43,290 bases of DNA from an uncultured bacterium (GTDB taxonomy: Bacteria; Patescibacteriota; Minisyncoccia; Phycocordibacterales; UBA9973): contig CAISUD010000039.1 in the NCBI GenBank assembly GCA_903888625.1, positions 1 to 43,290 of the forward strand, in the 5' to 3' direction. Below, piece after piece: positions 206 to 40,894 of this stretch. The notes beneath the pieces are model-generated. The model saw only the letters and a program-made list of their open reading frames with translations, ran no database searches and was not told the DNA's origin. How positions within the stretch are numbered: the stretch's first letter is position 1; each line of letters begins with the position of its first letter. A program made the position numbers and the translations under genes.

Positions 206-1123
206 ATGCAAAAACCAAAGGTAATCGTCATATTGGGTCAAACGGCTACTGGAAAGAGTGATTTGGCTGTTAAAATTGCCCTTCGACTACGCTCAGGACA
301 AGCTCAAAAATATGGTGGTGAGGTCATTTCTGCTGATTCTAGACAAGTATATAGAGGGCTTGATTTGGGTACCGGTAAAATTACCAAAAAAGAAATGAAG
401 GGCGTTCCTCATTACTTACTTGATATCGCCAATCCGAAAAAACAATTCACCGCTTTTGAATATCAAAAAAAAGCAATCTACGCCATGGCTGAGATTATAA
501 AAAGATGCAAAGTCCCGATAATTTGCGGAGGCACAGGTTTTTACATTGACGCAGTTGTGAATGGAACAATTTTCCCAGAAGTCCCACCAAGTTTAAAATT
601 AAGAAAAAGTTTAGCAAAAAAAACAAAAGAAGAACTTTTTGAAATATTAAAAAAATTAGACAAAAATCGAGCGAGAGATATTAAAAATAAAAATGAACAA
701 AATAATAAAGTCCGGCTTATTCGCGCTATCGAAATTGCAAAAACTCTTGGCAAGGTTCCACCCCATAGGTCTTGCCTATGTGGTAATTATAAATTTGTAA
801 AAATTGGTTTATATTTGCCAGACGAAATTTTAAAACAAAAAATTGAAAAAAGATTACTATCGAGAATTAAAAAGGGAATGCTGGCTGAAATAAAAAATCT
901 ACATAAAAATGGACTTTCTTGGAAACGAATGGAAGAACTTGGTTTAGAATATCGCTATATTTCGCAATATTTACAAAATCAAATAACTAAACAAGAGATG
1001 TTGAAAAAATTGAATTCAGAAATTTTCAAATACGCTAAGCGTCAAATGACTTGGTTTAAACGTGACAAGGAAATAAAATGGTTTGATGTCTCTAAAAAAA
1101 TAAATCTAGCAAAAATTATTTAA
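206..1123 (+). CDS. miaA: tRNA dimethylallyltransferase
   Basis: P-loop GQTATGKS, ISADSRQVYRGLDLGTGK, GGTGFY, YAKRQMTWF. Start moved from 128 to ATG 206 (MQKPKVIVILG), which follows TGCTATGCT + 6 nt. Confidence 0.95.
   Translation: MQKPKVIVILGQTATGKSDLAVKIALRLRSGQAQKYGGEVISADSRQVYRGLDLGTGKITKKEMKGVPHYLLDIANPKKQFTAFEYQKKAIYAMAEIIKRCKVPIICGGTGFYIDAVVNGTIFPEVPPSLKLRKSLAKKTKEELFEILKKLDKNRARDIKNKNEQNNKVRLIRAIEIAKTLGKVPPHRSCLCGNYKFVKIGLYLPDEILKQKIEKRLLSRIKKGMLAEIKNLHKNGLSWKRMEELGLEYRYISQYLQNQITKQEMLKKLNSEIFKYAKRQMTWFKRDKEIKWFDVSKKINLAKII
278..303 (+). repeat. REP-like element inside miaA (GCCCTTCGACTACGCTCAGGACAAGC; encodes LRLRSGQA)
   Basis: GC-rich patch in an AT-rich gene; 18/22 identity to the hairpin at 15789-15810 read on the minus strand. 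Confidence 0.65.
760..784. repeat. RAYT-type palindrome inside miaA (CATAGG-TCTTG-CCTATG; encodes HRSCLC)
   Basis: Same TAGG-TCTTG-CCTA core as the palindrome at 29473-29501 flanking the transposase. Confidence 0.8.
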
Positions 1124-25751: not shown

Positions 25752-25870
25752 ATCCCGTACGAAATCGCGAACGCATAGAAATTAATTAAATTATGATTAT
25801 CAAAATGTATATTATTATTAATAAAATAAAGGACGAAGCGTAAGCGTACGCGTCCTATTTCGTACGGGAT
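25752..25870. mobile_element. 119-bp MITE-like element with 14-bp terminal inverted repeats
   Basis: ATCCCGTACGAAAT (25752-25765) and ATTTCGTACGGGAT (25857-25870); AT-rich interior; internal AGGACG/CGTCCT hairpin. Confidence 0.65.
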
Positions 25871-26504
25871 GGATACTATCGAAAAACTAACTGAAATATT
25901 CAAAGATTTCCCTGGAATTGGCGAACGCCAGGCTAAACGTTTCGTATATTTTTTGATGTCTAGAAACCCAGCTTATATTGAAAATATATTACTTTTAGTC
26001 AAAGATTTAAAAAAAGAAATTTCTCAATGTAATGAATGCTTTCGTTTTTTCATCGTTAGGCAAGGCCTCACGACAAAAGTGTGTGACATTTGTTCTAATC
26101 CAAATGTTGGTACCTCAACATTGATGATTATTGAAAAAGATTCTGATTTGGAAAGTGTCCATAAAAGTAATTTATATCATGGAAAATATTTTATTTTAGG
26201 AGGCCTAGTGCCAATCGTAGAAAAAAATACTAATTCAAGAATTAGAATTAAGGAACTTTTAGAAAAAATAAAAAAATCACAAACCACTGAGGCAAGACCT
26301 CAGGGGTTAAATGAAATTATTTTAGCTTTTTCCCTTTCGCCCCAAGGCGACCATACTGATTTTTATATTCGTAGCCAGATTAAAGATTTATGTGTTTCAC
26401 TAAATATTAAAATTTCTTCGCTAGGCCGAGGCCTATCCACTGGCACCGAACTAGAATATTCTGACAACGATACTCTCAAAAACGCCCTCAAAAATAGGCA
26501 ATAA
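25869..26504 (+). CDS. recR: Recombination mediator RecR
   Basis: FPGIGERQAKR HhH, CxxC…CxxC finger, YHGKYFILGG, Toprim EIILA, GRGLSTGTELEYSD. Confidence 0.95.
   Translation: MDTIEKLTEIFKDFPGIGERQAKRFVYFLMSRNPAYIENILLLVKDLKKEISQCNECFRFFIVRQGLTTKVCDICSNPNVGTSTLMIIEKDSDLESVHKSNLYHGKYFILGGLVPIVEKNTNSRIRIKELLEKIKKSQTTEARPQGLNEIILAFSLSPQGDHTDFYIRSQIKDLCVSLNIKISSLGRGLSTGTELEYSDNDTLKNALKNRQ
26053..26073. repeat. RAYT-type palindrome inside the recR zinc finger (TCGTTAGG-CAAGG-CCTCACGA; encodes VRQGLT)
   Basis: AGG-CAAGR-CCT core; 7/8 stem pairs. Confidence 0.7.
26282..26308. repeat. RAYT-type palindrome inside the recR Toprim domain (AACCACTGAGG-CAAGA-CCTCAGGGGTT; encodes TTEARPQG)
   Basis: Exact AGGCAAGACCT core; 10/11 stem pairs. 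Confidence 0.8.
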
Positions 26505-26581
26505 AAAAACTCCTTTATTTCTAAAGAAGTTTTGTAATGACTATCACATGAATCAACCAATCAAACATTCTGGAATGCTGT

Positions 26582-27139
26582 TCACGATATTTTTTTCTTT
26601 TTAGGCATAATACTATATACAAGGATTGCAAAAAAGATAATAATATATACTATGATTTCCGTACCAAATATAAAACCATCAAAAGAATATACCGGCTTGC
26701 CAATTATAAGAACAAAATTGTCTCCAACAATTTTAAACGTTCTTGTAATATCACCAGTATAACCAAAAAAAACGGTCCAATTATAGATATCCAAACTAGA
26801 CACCTTGACAGAATCATTCCGTGCAAGTTTACCAAGCACAGAAGTATCTACTACAACATCTTCTGCATATTTTTTTATGCTATCAGAAATTTTAAACCTT
26901 TTTTGTAAATACATCATTACAATAGACCCCCCTCCAAAGATTGAATCGTATAAACAATCTGTTGTCCTAGTTGTTATCGGCATATTCATTTCTTCTACAA
27001 CATTATAAAGAAGTAAGGTTTTAAAATCCTTTGCTATAATAATTTTTTTACTACAACGTTTTCCGTCTGTAGTCATAGCTGTGCATTTTACCCCCATACT
27101 GAGTACAGAAAGTAAAACAATAATAATTATTTTTTTCAT
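26582..27139 (-). CDS. Hypothetical exported, C-terminally anchored protein
   Basis: Signal-like N-terminus, C-terminal TM plus KKKK; own TTGACA-16-TAGTAT promoter (27185-27212). Confidence 0.65.
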   Translation of the reverse strand: MKKIIIIVLLSVLSMGVKCTAMTTDGKRCSKKIIIAKDFKTLLLYNVVEEMNMPITTRTTDCLYDSIFGGGSIVMMYLQKRFKISDSIKKYAEDVVVDTSVLGKLARNDSVKVSSLDIYNWTVFFGYTGDITRTFKIVGDNFVLIIGKPVYSFDGFIFGTEIIVYIIIFFAILVYSIMPKKKKIS

Positions 27140-27213
27140 TTATCAAGATTTTTTTTATTTTACGATGAATGTTTATTTAAACAAATACTACTACTTTACA
27201 TAATTTTGTCAAC

Positions 27214-27244
27214 AAAAAAATCCCCTAATTTCTAGAGGATTTTT
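27214..27244 (-). terminator. Intrinsic terminator after rplU
   Basis: AAAATCCTCTAG…TTAGGGGATTTTTTT on the minus strand, overlapping the rplU stop. Confidence 0.6.
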
Positions 27245-27560
27245 ATTTGATAGAAAGAATTTTTACTTTGAAGAATGGCTGACGATGACCGTTACGACGA
27301 AGGTAACGAGACTTTTGTTTATATTTAACAACCAAAACCTTGCGAGTGCGGCCAATTTGCACAAGTTCTGCTTCAACTTTTGCACCTGAGATAATAGGTG
27401 TACCGATAGTAGTGTCCTTGCCATCATCTACGAGTAAAACTTGGTCAAAAATAAGCTTGTCTCCAACCTTGTATTCGCCCTTTATTTTCTCAATAGAAAC
27501 AAGGTCTCCTTTCGAGACTTTGTATTGTTTCCCGCCTGTTTTTATAACTGCAAATTCCAT
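27243..27560 (-). CDS. rplU: 50S ribosomal protein L21
   Basis: FAVIKTGGKQYKV, IGTP, GHRQPF. Confidence 0.97.
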   Translation of the reverse strand: MEFAVIKTGGKQYKVSKGDLVSIEKIKGEYKVGDKLIFDQVLLVDDGKDTTIGTPIISGAKVEAELVQIGRTRKVLVVKYKQKSRYLRRNGHRQPFFKVKILSIK

Positions 27561-27616
27561 ATAGACTATATTATATTAAATATTGTAAAAATGCAAGTTT
27601 TTGCTATAATCTCTTT

Positions 27617-29008
27617 ATGGCTATACAATTTTACAATACTCTCACTCGCAAAAAAGAAGAATTTACTCCTATAACCCCAGGTGAAGTCAAAATGTATTCT
27701 TGCGGGCCAACGGTCTACAACTATGCCCACATTGGCAATTTGCGGGCTTATGTTTTTACTGATATTCTGCGTAAAAGTTTAAAATACAATGGTTACAAAG
27801 TAACTCAGATAATGAATATTACCGACATTGGGCATCTTTCAAGTGACGCAGATTCCGGTGATGACAAAATGACCAAAGGGCTAATTCGTGAAGGCAAAGA
27901 ATTGAATTTAAAAAATATGCGAGAGCTAGCGGAATTTTATACTGAAAAATTCAAGGATGATTTAAAATCATTAAATATTGAATTACCAGACGGAATGTAT
28001 TTTGCAAGTGACTATGTACAAGAAGATATTGATTTAATCAAAAAGTTAGAAGATAAAAACTTTACATACAAAACAAGCGATGGAATTTATTTTGATACAG
28101 CAAAAATGCCAGACTATGGAATCCTCTGGGGTGGAAAAAGAATTCACGACGAAAAAGAAACTCGCATTGAAAAAAATATTGAGAAAAAAAACCCAGAAGA
28201 TTTTGCTCTTTGGAAATTCAATGATCAATTAGGATTTCCATCATCTTGGGGTATGGGCTTCCCTGGTTGGCATATCGAATGTTCTGCTATGGGTATTAAA
28301 TTTCTTGGAGAGCAATTTGATATTCATACAGGTGGCATAGAACATATTGATGTTCACCATACTAATGAAATTGCTCAATCAGAATGTGCTACTGGCAAAA
28401 AACCCTTTGTTAGATATTGGATGCACAATGAATGGATTTTATTTGGTAATAAAAAAATAGCCAAAGCTGATGGTACTTTTCTGAAATCAAGTGATTTAAA
28501 AGAAAAAAATATTAATCCAATTGCTTATAGGTTTTTTCTATTAATGGCAAATTATGGTAGTAAAATGAATTTCAATTGGGAAGCCTTGGAAGGAGCGGAA
28601 ACAGCCTTAAATAGGCTTTATAGGCTTTATAATGACCTTGGAAACACTATTGGAAGCGTCGATAAAGATTACCAGGAAAGGTTCAAAAACTTCATCAGCG
28701 ACGACTTAGACACTCCCAAAGCCCTTGCCCTCCTTTGGGATCTAATCAAAGACGAGAACGTTCCTAAAGCCGACAAAAAGGCTACAATTTTAGATTTTGA
28801 TAAAGTACTGGGTTTAAATTTTGAACACCAATCAGAAATTATTAAAAATGAAATAATTCCAAAAGAAATACAAAAATTAGCCGAAGAACGAAAAGAAGCC
28901 AGAAAAAATAAAGATTATAAAAAATCCGACGAACTTCGAAATGAAATCTCAAAACTAGGTTACGAAATCAAAGACAGCTCCGACGGATATAAAATAAATA
29001 AAATTTAA
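27617..29008 (+). CDS. cysS: Cysteine--tRNA ligase
   Basis: YSCGPTVY..AHIGN, NITD, DFALWK, PGWHIECSAM, DIHTGG, HHTNEIAQSE, DDLDTP. Confidence 0.96.
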   Translation: MAIQFYNTLTRKKEEFTPITPGEVKMYSCGPTVYNYAHIGNLRAYVFTDILRKSLKYNGYKVTQIMNITDIGHLSSDADSGDDKMTKGLIREGKELNLKNMRELAEFYTEKFKDDLKSLNIELPDGMYFASDYVQEDIDLIKKLEDKNFTYKTSDGIYFDTAKMPDYGILWGGKRIHDEKETRIEKNIEKKNPEDFALWKFNDQLGFPSSWGMGFPGWHIECSAMGIKFLGEQFDIHTGGIEHIDVHHTNEIAQSECATGKKPFVRYWMHNEWILFGNKKIAKADGTFLKSSDLKEKNINPIAYRFFLLMANYGSKMNFNWEALEGAETALNRLYRLYNDLGNTIGSVDKDYQERFKNFISDDLDTPKALALLWDLIKDENVPKADKKATILDFDKVLGLNFEHQSEIIKNEIIPKEIQKLAEERKEARKNKDYKKSDELRNEISKLGYEIKDSSDGYKINKI

Positions 29009-29010
29009 AT

Positions 29011-29041
29011 AAAAAAAAGTCGGCATATTTGTCGACTTTTT
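29011..29041. terminator. Bidirectional terminator
   Basis: A8-GTCGGCA-TATT-TGTCGAC-T5 between convergent genes. Confidence 0.75.
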
Positions 29042-29058
29042 GTTTACTGTTAACTAAT

Positions 29059-29310
29059 CTAAATACCCTGGCCAAGTGGATGTTTTACAACTTTTACTCT
29101 TTCATCGTGATTACCGGCGATAACAGAGTATTTATCTTTACTTGTCACAATATGGAAGGTACTCTTTGTTTTTTTACATTTCATAATTCTTGTACCCTCA
29201 ATGCAATCGTAAAAAGTAACATTGAATTTACAACAACACGGACAACCGTATTGTATAAAATCATTCGGCCTAATTGCTACTGTTGATTTAGATTTAATTT
29301 TTGTTTTCAT
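29059..29310 (-). CDS. Small basic Cys-containing hypothetical protein
   Basis: MKTKIK… start; GCPCCCK…C…C; upstream TTGACA-16-TATATT (29436-29463) and downstream terminator. Confidence 0.55.
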   Translation of the reverse strand: MKTKIKSKSTVAIRPNDFIQYGCPCCCKFNVTFYDCIEGTRIMKCKKTKSTFHIVTSKDKYSVIAGNHDERVKVVKHPLGQGI

Positions 29311-29472
29311 AAAAAATATTATATAGTTAGACATTTTATTGATTTGCAAAAACTTAAAAACCAAAAATGATTTTCAAGATTTCACAAACCAAAATCTAAA
29401 CTTTTTCAAGGATCGGTATCTGGAGATTTAATATTAATATATCATTTTAATTAATTCTGTCAACTATTTTAT

Positions 29473-29501
29473 AAAACGACTAGGTCTTGCCTAGTCGTTT
29501 T
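29473..29501. repeat. Left REP-like palindrome of the transposase
   Basis: AAAACGACTAGG-TCTTG-CCTAGTCGTTTT, perfect 12-bp stem. Confidence 0.9.
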
Positions 29502-29521
29502 TTTTGATATATAATTGATAT

Positions 29522-30187
29522 ATGTCTATCAGAAAAATAAATTTAGTTGGAGGTGAATATTATCATATTTATAATCGTGGTAATAGCAAGCAGAAAATTT
29601 TTCACGATAATGAAGATTATTTTCGCTTTATGAGTCTTTTATACTCTTGCAATTCTATAAATAGTTTTAGAATTTTTGGTCTGAACAAAGACGAAAGTCC
29701 ATATGATTTTGACAGAGATAAACAAATTGTCTCTATTGGATCTTTTTGTTTAATGCCTAATCATTTTCATATTCTTATTACCCAATTAGAGGAAAAAGGT
29801 ATCAGTAAATTTATGCAAAAATTAAGCACAGCTTATTCTATGTATTATAATAAAAAATACATAAGAACCGGTGGATTGTTTGAAGGAAAATTTAAATCCG
29901 AACACGCAAAAAATGATCGTTATTTAAAATATTTATTTTCATATATTCATTTAAATCCAATAAAACTTTTTCAAAAAGATTGGAAAGAAATAGGAATAAA
30001 AAATAAAAAAGAAGCTCTGGCCTATTTAGAAAAATATAAATATTCTAGTTATCAAGATTTTTTGGATATAAAAAGAATTCAAAATAAAATATTAAATATA
30101 GAATCTTTTCCAAAATATTTTTCAAACAAAGAATCATTTATAAAAGAAATCTTTGAGTGGTTGGGTTATAACAACAAAAATGACTAG
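29522..30187 (+). mobile_element. REP-associated tyrosine transposase (RAYT/TnpA-REP; HUH Y1, IS200/IS605 superfamily)
   Basis: YYHIYNRG, CLMPNHFH (HUH), GGLFEGKF, YIHLNP (catalytic Tyr), YSSY; flanked by inverted palindromes. Confidence 0.9.
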
Positions 30188-30205
30188 GCAAGACCTAGTC
30201 ATTTT
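30177..30205. repeat. Right REP-like palindrome of the transposase (contains its stop codon)
   Basis: AAAATGACTAGG-CAAGA-CCTAGTCATTTT; inverted relative to the left copy, with one compensatory pair change. Confidence 0.9.
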
Positions 30206-30206
30206 A

Positions 30207-31145
30207 TTAATCCCAATTAAAGTTGTTGCCATGGTGGCCCCAGAGAGCTGTTTCAGCAAATTTCACTTTATCTAGTTTTAAAAATTCTCGAATACCACTT
30301 GGAGATAAGTCATAACCCTCCACTTGTTCTTCTTTGCTATCGACGACGGCTACTGCCATCACTGGTTCACTTTTGCCAATGGCATAAGCTAATTTCACAA
30401 AAATTTCGTTTGCATTATTTTTTTTCAACAAACCAACAGCTATTTTTCTTGCCATATAGGCACCACTCCTATCAACTTTAGTATAATCTTTTCCAGAAAA
30501 AGAACCGCCACCGATTGGAATCTCTGGTCCATAATTATCTATCACTAATTTTCTGCCTGAAAGACCAGTGTCAGAATCAAAACCACCTTGGGTCCATTCT
30601 CCGGCTGGATTAATTAAATACTCATCAGCTATAATTATGCTTTTTACTAATGGCAATAAATCCACATTTTTGGAATTTTGAAAACTGACTACTACTGTTT
30701 TTATTTTTTCATCTTCCAAAGTCACTTGCACTTTGCCATCGTAAGGATATTTTTCATAAACTTTTTGACAAAGGTCTCGAGCTAAATCGTATTCTCTCGG
30801 CATCATATTTTCTGTCTCGTTCGTCGCATAACCTTTCATTATTCCTTGATCCCCCGCTCCACCAGTATCCACTCCTTTTGCAATTTCAGAACTTTGTTTT
30901 ACTAAGTTTATTTTTATTTCAAAATTATTTCCAACTATTTTTTTAATTAAAGATTCAATATCTGGGCTAGCGTTACTCGTCACTTCACCATTCACATTTA
31001 TCAAACCATGCCCTCCCATCACTTCTACTGCCACTCGGCTATCTTTATCCAACTCTAAAAATGCATCTAAAATAGAATCGGCAATAAAATCACACATTTT
31101 GTCTGGATGTTTTGGACTCACAAACTCAGCTGTTTTGATACTCAT
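30207..31145 (-). CDS. metK: S-adenosylmethionine synthetase (compact)
   Basis: EFVSPKHPDKMCD, GAGDQG, DGKVQV, INPAG, DTGLSGRK, GGGSFSGKDYTKVDRSGAY. Confidence 0.95.
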   Translation of the reverse strand: MSIKTAEFVSPKHPDKMCDFIADSILDAFLELDKDSRVAVEVMGGHGLINVNGEVTSNASPDIESLIKKIVGNNFEIKINLVKQSSEIAKGVDTGGAGDQGIMKGYATNETENMMPREYDLARDLCQKVYEKYPYDGKVQVTLEDEKIKTVVVSFQNSKNVDLLPLVKSIIIADEYLINPAGEWTQGGFDSDTGLSGRKLVIDNYGPEIPIGGGSFSGKDYTKVDRSGAYMARKIAVGLLKKNNANEIFVKLAYAIGKSEPVMAVAVVDSKEEQVEGYDLSPSGIREFLKLDKVKFAETALWGHHGNNFNWD

Positions 31146-38671: not shown

Positions 38672-40894
38672 TTATTCTAAAATTTTTCGCAAAATATCTT
38701 CTGGAACTTCCCTAACCTTTCCAGAAGGAGAAATCGTCGGATTTGAATTTGAAACGGGTGTTGGGTTTGAAACTGGTGTAGGAATTGGTTCAGAAACATA
38801 TTTTTCTATTGGTGGAATTTGGGGTTCAATAATTTCTTGTTTTACTGGTATTTCTGGTTCTGGTATCTTGGGAACAAAACTTGTAGTAGTATTGTTTTCT
38901 GAAATTAAATCTTTCAATTTATTCATATCATCTCGATTGGCAGATTTATCAGGCAAACGAGAAACAGGACTTGAATTAGAAACTCGTAAATCATTCAAGG
39001 AAATTGGAGCAGGTCCAGCATTTTTTACTTCTCCCTCTCCTAAAGTTTTATTTAAAATATCACGTAAAGCCAAATTTTCTCCCATTACTTTTGGCTTTTG
39101 AACAGGCTTCTGAAAAGGTTTATTGGGTTGATTATTAAATACTTTCTTTGGGCCGACGTAATTTCCAGATTGATTAAAATTATTTTTATTTGGAGTAAAA
39201 ACCCTGTCTTTCCCGAACGATGGAGTAAGAACTTTTTTAATTTTTGAAAAAACATTAGGCTTTGAGTGGATATCCCTTTCACTTCGATCTGGATATCTTT
39301 CATTTTCTTCTTTTGTTTCACCTTGAGCCGAATTCCCTTTATTTTCAAATTCAATACCTAAATCAGACAACGGTTTAAAAAACTTTGTTTCATCATATTT
39401 TATTTGATTAAGTGAACCCCTGATTGGTTTTAATTCCCCTGTTTTCATTTTAGCAATACAATCTTTACAATAGACTGGTCTGCCAGCTTCGGGTTTGAAA
39501 GGTACAGTCGTTTCTTTTTTACAAATCGAACAAACTGCAGGAAATTTTTCTACATCTCCAACTTCATCGTTTCCCAAAGACATTCCACTCCAATCATTAA
39601 TTTCTTTTTCAACCACAACTTTTGATTTACAATATAAAGAGCGAGACATTTTAATAACTTCTTGCTCAACTTTTTGTGGATCAACATTTTGGGTCATCGG
39701 AGGTAAAGTTCTCGCAGAAAATGGACGAGAAGTGACACCATCGATCATTAAACGAAGATACACTTTATAGTTTGGCAAATTCACAATATCTTGCGGGGTA
39801 AATTCTGGTTCAAATTCTTTTTCTAAGAAGTCTGCGTCGTCAGCCCCAACTCGAAAGACAATCATCGTCCCGACATTACCGAAAACTGCATCTCGCACCA
39901 TTGAGCCATTTTCGGTGACCAACTGAGCTGTATATTGGTGAGCAATCGTTAAATTTAAACGATATTTTCGAGCCTCAGACAAAATTCCGGCAAAAGCGTT
40001 CGTCACAAAATTTTGGAATTCGTCGACATAAAGATAAAAATCTTTACGATCATCTTCTGGAATACGGACACGTTCCATGGCAGCTAATTGAATTTTAGTA
40101 ATAATCATTCCACCAAGTAAAGCAGAATTGTCTTCACCAATACGTCCTTTAGAAACATTCACCAAAAATATTTTCCCTTCATTCATAATATCAAAAACAT
40201 TGATGGTACTGATAGATTGACCAACCACATTTCGAATTAAAGACGAAGACAAAAATTGTCCGACTTTGTTTTGAATCGGTGCGATCGCCTCATTTCGAAA
40301 TTTTTCTTGCCACTGCTCATATTCATGAATCCAAAAAGCCTTAATGACTGGGTCTTTCAAGTTAGCAATAATTTTCTGACGGTAATCTTTGTCTACCAGC
40401 ATTCGAGGTATTCCAAGTAAGGTCGTGCCTGGTGTATCGAGTAATGCCAAAATCGCATTGTTTAAAATATATTCCATTCGAGCACTCCAAGCATTCGCCC
40501 AAATTTTTGTGAAAATTCCCATCAGTCCGGAAGCGACTAGATGTTTGTATTTAGGATCAATTAATTCTAGGACGTTAAAACCAATATGAAAATCAGTATC
40601 AGCTGGATTAAAATAAATTACATCTTTCATTCGATGTGGAGGAATCATTTGCAAAATTCCTTCAACTAATTCTCCGTGCGGATCGACGACACAAACACCT
40701 TCGCTATTATTTATATTTTGAACGATCATATTGGAAAGAAGTACAGATTTACCAGTACCAGATTTTCCAAGGACATATACGTGTTGGCGTCTGTCTTTAC
40801 GTTTAATACCAAAAAGCTGGTTTTTATCCCGAAAAGTAGTCTGCCCGATATAGGTTAAATCCTTATTTCTTGGTATATCTATTGGTTCGATCAT
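38672..40894 (-). CDS. TrwB/TraD/HerA-like ATPase with CxxC-x17-CxxC domain and P-rich tail, paralog A
   Basis: HVYVLGKSGTGKS, VDPHGE, LYVDEFQN, LSEARKY..AHQY; CSICKKETTVPFKPEAGRPVYCKDC. Confidence 0.87.
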   Translation of the reverse strand: MIEPIDIPRNKDLTYIGQTTFRDKNQLFGIKRKDRRQHVYVLGKSGTGKSVLLSNMIVQNINNSEGVCVVDPHGELVEGILQMIPPHRMKDVIYFNPADTDFHIGFNVLELIDPKYKHLVASGLMGIFTKIWANAWSARMEYILNNAILALLDTPGTTLLGIPRMLVDKDYRQKIIANLKDPVIKAFWIHEYEQWQEKFRNEAIAPIQNKVGQFLSSSLIRNVVGQSISTINVFDIMNEGKIFLVNVSKGRIGEDNSALLGGMIITKIQLAAMERVRIPEDDRKDFYLYVDEFQNFVTNAFAGILSEARKYRLNLTIAHQYTAQLVTENGSMVRDAVFGNVGTMIVFRVGADDADFLEKEFEPEFTPQDIVNLPNYKVYLRLMIDGVTSRPFSARTLPPMTQNVDPQKVEQEVIKMSRSLYCKSKVVVEKEINDWSGMSLGNDEVGDVEKFPAVCSICKKETTVPFKPEAGRPVYCKDCIAKMKTGELKPIRGSLNQIKYDETKFFKPLSDLGIEFENKGNSAQGETKEENERYPDRSERDIHSKPNVFSKIKKVLTPSFGKDRVFTPNKNNFNQSGNYVGPKKVFNNQPNKPFQKPVQKPKVMGENLALRDILNKTLGEGEVKNAGPAPISLNDLRVSNSSPVSRLPDKSANRDDMNKLKDLISENNTTTSFVPKIPEPEIPVKQEIIEPQIPPIEKYVSEPIPTPVSNPTPVSNSNPTISPSGKVREVPEDILRKILE

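Follow-up and report, generated by a model that had tools for sequence, protein, structure and literature searches.

The stretch of DNA analyzed here (43,290 nucleotides, hereafter the window) very probably carries a REPtron, namely a RAYT-type Y1/HUH gene bracketed by its cognate REPs, set within a genome-wide REP/REPIN population of a Nomurabacteria-type (Patescibacteria) bacterium. The evidence lies in the anatomy of the locus, the enrichment of a hairpin core throughout the genome, the association of that core with RAYT genes, the insertion of hairpins relative to orthologous genes and the covariation of their stems. Most REP/RAYT systems on record are from Proteobacteria, Cyanobacteria, and Bacteroidetes, and their repeats are regarded as extragenic, an intragenic copy being exceptional. 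The window is contig C39 of the source genome (G000), a 903,631-base assembly in 64 contigs with 33% G+C.

RESULTS

A RAYT-like Gene between Inverted Hairpins

The gene at 29522-30187 (plus strand) is an intact open reading frame of 221 amino acids that we assign, from Pfam, its motifs and its fold, as a RAYT-like Y1/HUH tyrosine nuclease/transposase. The product matches Pfam Y1_Tnp (PF01797) with 38.5 bits (E value 1.5e-9), above the gathering cut-off of 23, and the NCBIfam REP_Tyr_transpos equivalog NF047646 with 40.2 bits, under the cut-off of 80. Its HUH motif (N80, H81, F82, H83) and the motif Y141-x-H-L-N145 are invariant in an alignment across 23 relatives; the class 2 Y motif, Y-x-x-x-N-P, takes the form YIHLNP and is accompanied by NHFH and by a pair of serines at 175-176. 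In an AF2 model (mean pLDDT 84.8) Tyr-141 lies within a helix formed by residues 132-144. PDB sequence searches with the protein, and also with the 23-sequence profile, gave chance-level matches only. In a Foldseek search of the PDB the best match of the model was 4ER8, a structure of E. coli TnpA-REP in complex with a REP hairpin (E value 1.3e-4), followed by the TnpA proteins of IS608 and ISDra2, with a probability of 1.00 and TM scores (target) of 0.55-0.64 for the top matches.

The left hairpin (29473-29501, plus strand) combines a 12-bp stem with a 5-nt TCTTG loop and is followed by a T run (-12 kcal/mol, z -7.5), and the right hairpin (30177-30205, plus strand) is an inverted copy with the loop CAAGA (-11.2 kcal/mol, z -8.8). 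The two are 29 nt each and are mutual reverse complements save for one compensated pair, C-G versus T-A, and the TAG stop codon of the RAYT gene (30185-30187) falls within the 5' arm of the right one. The preliminary description of this DNA had reported the intact gene between inverted 29-nt palindromes, the compensated pair and the stop codon inside the hairpin, along with three more hairpins in coding genes of the window; all of this is present, including the five hairpins at their positions. As single-stranded DNA the five fold with -5.5 to -12 kcal/mol (z -3.5 to -8.8), and for each of them 0 of 200 shuffles folds as well. The accompanying claim that the outer stems differ and yet stay paired holds as to the pairing, except for one mismatched stem pair in the miaA copy and in both recR copies.

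The flanking hairpins may also have roles in transcription. By pattern match both look like terminators, the right one for the following minus-strand gene; read on the minus strand, it stands directly after the stop of the gene read as metK. A promoter-like TTGCCT-17-TATAAT sequence (29487-29515, plus strand; 10 of 12 matches in a consensus scan) overlaps the left hairpin, whose loop plus 3' arm form the first hexamer, and a -35 box for the RAYT gene is probably provided by this hairpin. A TATAAT-like box occurs at the equivalent place in many of the related RAYT loci, and among 80 further RAYT loci the distance from core to ATG is 29-31 nt for 52 of 75 upstream cores.

The order recR ... cysS / metK is conserved in ten related contigs, and a RAYT gene lies between cysS and metK in none of the ten. 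In six of these contigs cysS and metK are 10-21 nt apart, versus 1.2 kb in the window, and the 1.2-kb insert is mostly missing in the syntenic relatives. No tnpB was seen beside the RAYT gene, and an Rfam scan of the window returned tRNA only. The interval between cysS and the RAYT unit also holds a small ORF with a C-x-C-C-C cluster (29059-29310, minus strand), a promoter-like site lies at 29463-29436 (minus strand; 11 of 12 matches in a consensus scan), and a terminator-like hairpin follows cysS (29014-29041).

Three RAYT paralogs are encoded in the source genome (100, 68, and 51% identity), and to judge from their sequences they are diverged paralogs, not IS-like copies. All three have the core on their flanks, with a different stem for each. 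The most divergent of them (C23:9150-9800) carries its own hairpin in frame just ahead of the HUH motif.

The Hairpin Core across the Genome and among Relatives

The invariant part of the hairpin consists of the 5-nt loop and three closing pairs, and the commonest inner stem has GCT adjoining AGG. Within the window the core occurs six times when up to one mismatch is allowed, whereas 100 shuffles average 0.31 and none of them reaches six; four of the occurrences are exact, and the one at 26058 is the common CAAGG loop variant. The sixth, a near-core AGGCACGACCT with one mismatch (40420-40430, minus strand) inside the long ORF 38672-40894, may be due to chance. Over the 903,631 bases of the assembly AGGCAAGRCCT and its complement (core AGG-YCTTG-CCT) have 50 exact occurrences, against 0.23 expected from base composition, so that the predicted enrichment extends genome-wide and the system is wider than first noted.

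When cores no more than 30 nt apart were merged, the source genome yielded 40 units. Ten of these are head-to-head doublets by the exact core, that is, two inverted REPs with a short spacer (examples lie in gatA, ligA, murD, tsaD, pheT, and the RNase R gene), and most units are solo hairpins or doublets distant from any RAYT. We placed 15 of the 40 units inside ORFs of 80 amino acids or more, 7 across an ORF end and 18 in intergenic DNA. Because the ORF map used for this placement covers 89% of the genome, the units are strongly enriched in the small intergenic fraction, and still more than one-third are intragenic. NCBIfam identified the host genes as those for MiaA, RecR, LigA, MurD, TsaD, PheT, RNase R, RecJ, GatC, a PriA-like protein, and an rRNA methyltransferase-like protein; GatA was identified by reading and through its orthologs, RecR carries two core hairpins, and one RAYT paralog is itself a host. 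The presence of the hairpins on the flanks of all three paralogs and their dispersal as 40 units bear out the earlier proposal that they are the cognate repeats of the RAYT-like gene.

Other repeats are present in the source genome. One is GC-rich, ~78 nt long, with internal hairpins, and reads in frame as ...NHHPALKGTPPPQGGE...; it has five copies (C13:14668, C45:20284, C45:39886, C56:16730, and C41:27425), four of them within ORFs (those of LigA and RNase R and two further long ones), and its peptide (NHHPALKGTPPPQGGE) also matches many congener ORFs. Further GC-rich 11-mers are 200- to 500-fold over-represented, among them CCCCTCTCCAG (20 copies), AAGGAGAGGGG (27), and AACCTCACCCC (26), and by their sequences point to further repeat families.

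The association of core and gene is seen well beyond the source genome. Among 30 RAYT loci of the genus, the window's own included, the 9-nt core is found upstream in 29 and downstream in 29, with 24 of the downstream cores inverted and five in the same orientation; the lone exception, L037, has a variant loop. The 80 further RAYT loci (62-83% identical), mostly from Candidatus Nomurabacteria and other Paceibacteria, have the core on both sides in 70 cases. Across a set of 121 congener genomes that includes one unpublished genome (G075), the core motif is present in 102 (a reversed control pattern occurs 0-3 times per genome) and a RAYT homolog in 91, with up to 15 RAYT matches in genomes of 0.6-1 Mb. 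The count of cores and that of RAYT matches are correlated (Spearman 0.71), and five or more cores are found in 59 of the 91 RAYT-positive versus 2 of the 30 RAYT-negative genomes; both figures come from relatives that are not independent of one another. More distant RAYT paralogs from two congeners (30-54% identity) have different hairpins with different loops at their flanks; these match on both sides in 9 of 12, and an internal hairpin copy is found in 3 of these 12 and in 2 of the 80 close ones. One congener genome, G012 (99% complete), matches neither the RAYT protein nor Pfam Y1_Tnp despite 32 cores, and it carries an in-frame core doublet at recR site 2; its hairpins may be orphans, a repeat population still present after loss of the enzyme.

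In-frame Hairpins within Core Proteins

The preliminary description had found the core three more times in the window, each time in frame within a coding gene, and all three copies do lie inside open frames. The miaA copy (760-784, plus strand; MiaA by NCBIfam) encodes about PHRSCLCG. In recR the first copy (site 1, 26053-26073, plus strand) is a degenerate hairpin with a CAAGG loop at residues 62-68, in the zinc-finger loop, and the second (site 2, 26282-26308, plus strand) encodes residues about 138-147, with the peptide TTEARPQG. In an AF2 model of RecR (pLDDT 85.4) both hairpin peptides lie in coil, in blocks of lowered pLDDT, that of site 2 between a helix (127-139) and a strand (149-153). 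With 15 of the 40 units inside ORFs, in-frame translation within core proteins extends from the window to the genome.

To what extent the hairpins are insertions differs from site to site. In codon alignments with the closest orthologs from four to five congeners, five sites show a net gain, of 10 codons in tsaD and in murD, 6 to 8 in gatA, 5 to 7 at recR site 2, and 4 in gatC, in keeping with the earlier claim. The claim of simple insertion lacks support at miaA (net 0 to +1 codons) and recR site 1 (net +1 to +2), where the hairpin adds 0-2 codons; the loops are of about equal length in relatives, some of which have other palindromes there. For pheT and ligA relatives vary too much in the region for a net length figure. 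At the remaining sites the net gain usually falls 9-15 nt short of the palindrome length, which would require that target codons were lost or that the site already held an older element.

For recR we collected 110 loci, of which two were dropped as short or masked, leaving 108 RecR orthologs. Site 2 measures 11 residues in 36 and 13 residues in 30 of the 108, with a maximum of 30 residues, and the recR genes of L110/L111 consist of the 13-residue baseline plus exactly nine codons, which are the 27-nt hairpin. This hairpin is identical in the source genome and in L110/L111, genes that are 68% identical in DNA. The core is found in 13 of the 108 recR genes and is lacking from 95. Its carriers are scattered over the recR tree and require nine changes, at least five of them forced by well-supported branches; this was a quick tree with both variable sites masked and many open forks, so that the number of independent gains is a lower bound. 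A core hairpin also occupies the site-1 loop in the ortholog L121, and core doublets occur in recR of other species.

The same protein loops can hold palindromes of other families, with other loops of their own and again in frame. These were seen in gatA (L068), in miaA (L062, L064, and L065), in the ligA loop (L081 and L084), at recR site 2 (L010, L112, L165, and L173), and at recR site 1 (L117/L133/L153). A metagenome scan for empty-site alleles returned no RecR above 79% identity. In four public runs from one study, possibly of the source sample, the contigs over 25800-30400 have the occupied form only, as far as contigs, which drop rare variants, can represent it; over recR and the RAYT unit they show no differences, and no insertion or deletion at the hairpins. 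Joints in these contigs have short sides or come from other organisms.

Origin and Design of the Stems

It had been suggested that the stems are copied from the target sequence, and the distribution of the stems speaks against this. The miaA stem matches the RAYT-flanking hairpins of two other species (L054 and L056; G022 and G121), with 2 of 16 arm positions differing. The stem of recR site 2 recurs in source genome contigs C61 (1 of 16 positions differs), C19, and C23, and in four other recR genes, with 0 of 16 differing in L110, and the stem that flanks the RAYT gene of the window is also found beside RAYT genes of G072 and G068. The two stems that flank a given RAYT gene match, and they differ from those of other RAYT genes. 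Only the stem of recR site 1 is without a close relative among 137 hairpins, with 7 of 16 arm positions differing. Nor did ortholog alignment reveal an arm already present at the target, since neither arm is visible in the empty recR sites.

Covariation was measured on 148 of 213 distinct hairpins, picked by the core alone. Stem pairs 8-12 are paired in 82-98% of these, with four to six pair types each, and 504 cells are changed on both sides versus 243 in shuffles. The covariation score is 0.454 versus 0.166 in shuffles, none of 500 reaching the observed value, and falls to 0.12-0.17 when the partners are slid. Because the stems are shared between loci and species and covary, we regard them as family traits that drift by compensated changes and not as copies of the target. 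The 8 nt adjoining the stem at each end, compared in 93 hairpins, contain no conserved base, no target motif, and no 5' GT[AG]G foot.

Tandem duplications of half a hairpin (an arm plus part of the loop) were seen in 14 of the 137 hairpins, 13 of them beside RAYT genes (L032-L060 and L130). Their borders fall at core position 3, 5-6, or 8, at the stem-loop junction or in the loop. A single cleavage point was considered from these borders and rejected, as they share no common point, and slippage therefore explains the duplications as well as enzymatic cutting would.

DISCUSSION

From the sequences we infer that the RAYT binds, cleaves, and mobilizes the hairpins. In single-stranded DNA the enzyme would recognize the hairpin by its invariant loop and the AGG/CCT pairs that close it, and would cut and rejoin the DNA there, with the result that solo hairpins and head-to-head doublets are copied to new places. 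Because ~89% of this small genome is ORF, many copies would land in genes, and those that survive would be the ones that are in frame, free of stops, and situated in length-variable surface loops of proteins, where they would persist as short translated peptides of about 4-15 residues. The stems would be inherited from hairpin sub-families that co-evolve with the RAYT paralogs and would not be made from the target. Copy number is modest, at 40 units.

Three other explanations have to be weighed against this one. The hairpins might serve mainly as host cis-elements (terminators, promoter parts, or selected DNA structures), with a domesticated RAYT and with coding copies that are old and conserved. 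The terminator-like flanks, the -35-like hexamer in the left hairpin at its fixed 29-31 nt from the ATG, the divergence of the RAYT paralogs, which are not IS-like copies, and the identity of the recR site-2 hairpin between the source genome and L110 in genes of only 68% identity would all fit. However, most orthologs have no coding copy, as with the 95 coreless recR genes, and the carriers are scattered on the quick recR tree with its nine changes, at least five of them forced by well-supported branches. Moreover, loops that hold one palindrome family in one species hold another family elsewhere, which fits repeated invasion better than one conserved element, and we consider the cis-element explanation quite unlikely. 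That hairpin, gene, and hairpin together form an autonomous IS200-like insertion sequence, the solo hairpins being left-over ends or MITE-like and not REPs served in trans, is very unlikely in our estimation. In its favor, none of the ten syntenic relatives has the unit between cysS and metK, genus genomes of 0.6-1 Mb have up to 15 RAYT matches, and the protein shares the fold family of the IS200/IS605 TnpA proteins (IS608 and ISDra2), in which hairpins likewise stand near both ends of the gene, in a subterminal position. Against this, the three copies in the source genome share only 51-68% identity, so there are no near-identical multi-copy elements in it, most units are solo or doublet and far from any RAYT, and Y-x-x-x-N-P is the class 2 (RAYT) signature and not the Y-x-x-x-Q of IS200, as compared with Table 1 of PMC6006769.

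The last explanation, for which we see hardly any likelihood, is that the hairpins are built on site, a short fixed core being added and the neighboring target copied into the second arm. A net codon gain below palindrome length at several sites and the solitary stem of recR site 1 speak for it, and the gatC 3' arm resembles the orthologous sequence at six of nine positions. That match is weak, however, and falls in A/T-rich DNA, and recR orthologs show no trace of the arms at their empty sites. The remaining evidence also goes against on-site building, since the miaA stem is that of the RAYT flanks of L054 and L056 within 2 of 16 positions, the recR site-2 stem is that of L110 (0 of 16) and of contig C61 of the source genome (1 of 16), and the stems agree between left and right of each RAYT gene and differ between genes.

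Within the preferred reading of a RAYT and its cognate REPs, a more specific variant is conceivable, if unlikely. The enzyme of this RAYT clade may read, and perhaps nick, the invariant loop, in the manner of a rolling-circle Rep at origins, and not a foot tag, and the hairpins may home to a few permissive protein loops, which would then be the main habitat of REPINs in genomes that have hardly any intergenic DNA, the hairpins being kept there at the DNA level. Hints in this direction are the identical 27-nt recR hairpin in lineages split by well-supported branches, the same loops held by different palindrome families in different species, and the half-hairpin duplications (14 of 137 hairpins) bordered in or at the loop.

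Like the REPtrons of E. coli (YafM, 4ER8), Pseudomonas, and Stenotrophomonas, the system comprises a Y1/HUH gene between inverted hairpins that are dispersed genome-wide, diverged paralogs each with its own hairpin type, and a fold closest to 4ER8. It departs from them in that a constant loop and three closing pairs take the place of the 5' GT[AG]G foot, the protein scores under the NCBIfam RAYT cut-off, and the host is of a Patescibacteria lineage with a 0.9-Mb genome. Rickettsia palindromic elements are in-frame palindromic insertions in coding genes, and the hairpins described here are alike in behavior, being inserted in frame in proteins. As with the REPINs of Bertels and Rainey, 10 of the 40 units are two inverted REPs with a short spacer, and doublets also occur in recR of other species; unlike REPINs, the doublets are very short (about 34-47 nt) and often intragenic.

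In the canonical REP the hairpin foot bears a 5' GT[AG]G tetranucleotide, according to PMC6006769, which also records in-frame REPs inside tnpA-REP genes (Quentin et al., 2018). Intragenic REPs, often as doublets, often in replication and repair genes, and at the same site in related species, are described by Di Nocera et al. (2013; PMC3733652). The in-frame palindromes and doublets found here, in hosts such as LigA, RecJ, RecR, the PriA-like protein, and others, resemble those intragenic REPs; they differ in belonging to another repeat family and another enzyme clade, and the intragenic share (15 of 40) is far larger. Judged by motifs only, our protein is like TnpA-Y1 subclass 2.1 (Bertels group 1, 'TIRYT'), which Table 1 of PMC6006769 characterizes by NH[YF]H, Y[IV]HLNP, an SS-containing C-terminal tail, and ~238 amino acids, and which it resembles in motifs, SS tail, and length. 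That subclass is reported in PMC6006769 to be without REPs or to have long terminal inverted repeats instead, whereas clear REP hairpins flank the gene here.

Searches of the literature on Patescibacteria, Parcubacteria, Nomurabacteria, or CPR in combination with REP, RAYT, IS200, or palindromes, taken outside the supplements of PMC6006769 and PMC3733652, returned no paper on such a system. REP/RAYT elements as selfish DNA, intragenic REPs included, were already known; the novelty lies in the host clade, the design of the hairpin (a conserved loop with no GTAG foot), and the high intragenic share, in a system that is real and well supported. In an ultra-small genome that is ~89% ORF, more than one-third of the units are translated within essential proteins of replication, repair, and translation, which makes this a case of selfish DNA shaping protein length variation in streamlined genomes. 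The repeated occupation of the same protein loops across the genus amounts to a natural map of where the loops of core proteins tolerate insertion. Finally, the hairpin design, with its fixed loop, its free but paired stem, and the lack of a GTAG foot, offers a simple and testable recognition code for a RAYT clade that resembles a subclass reported to be REP-less.
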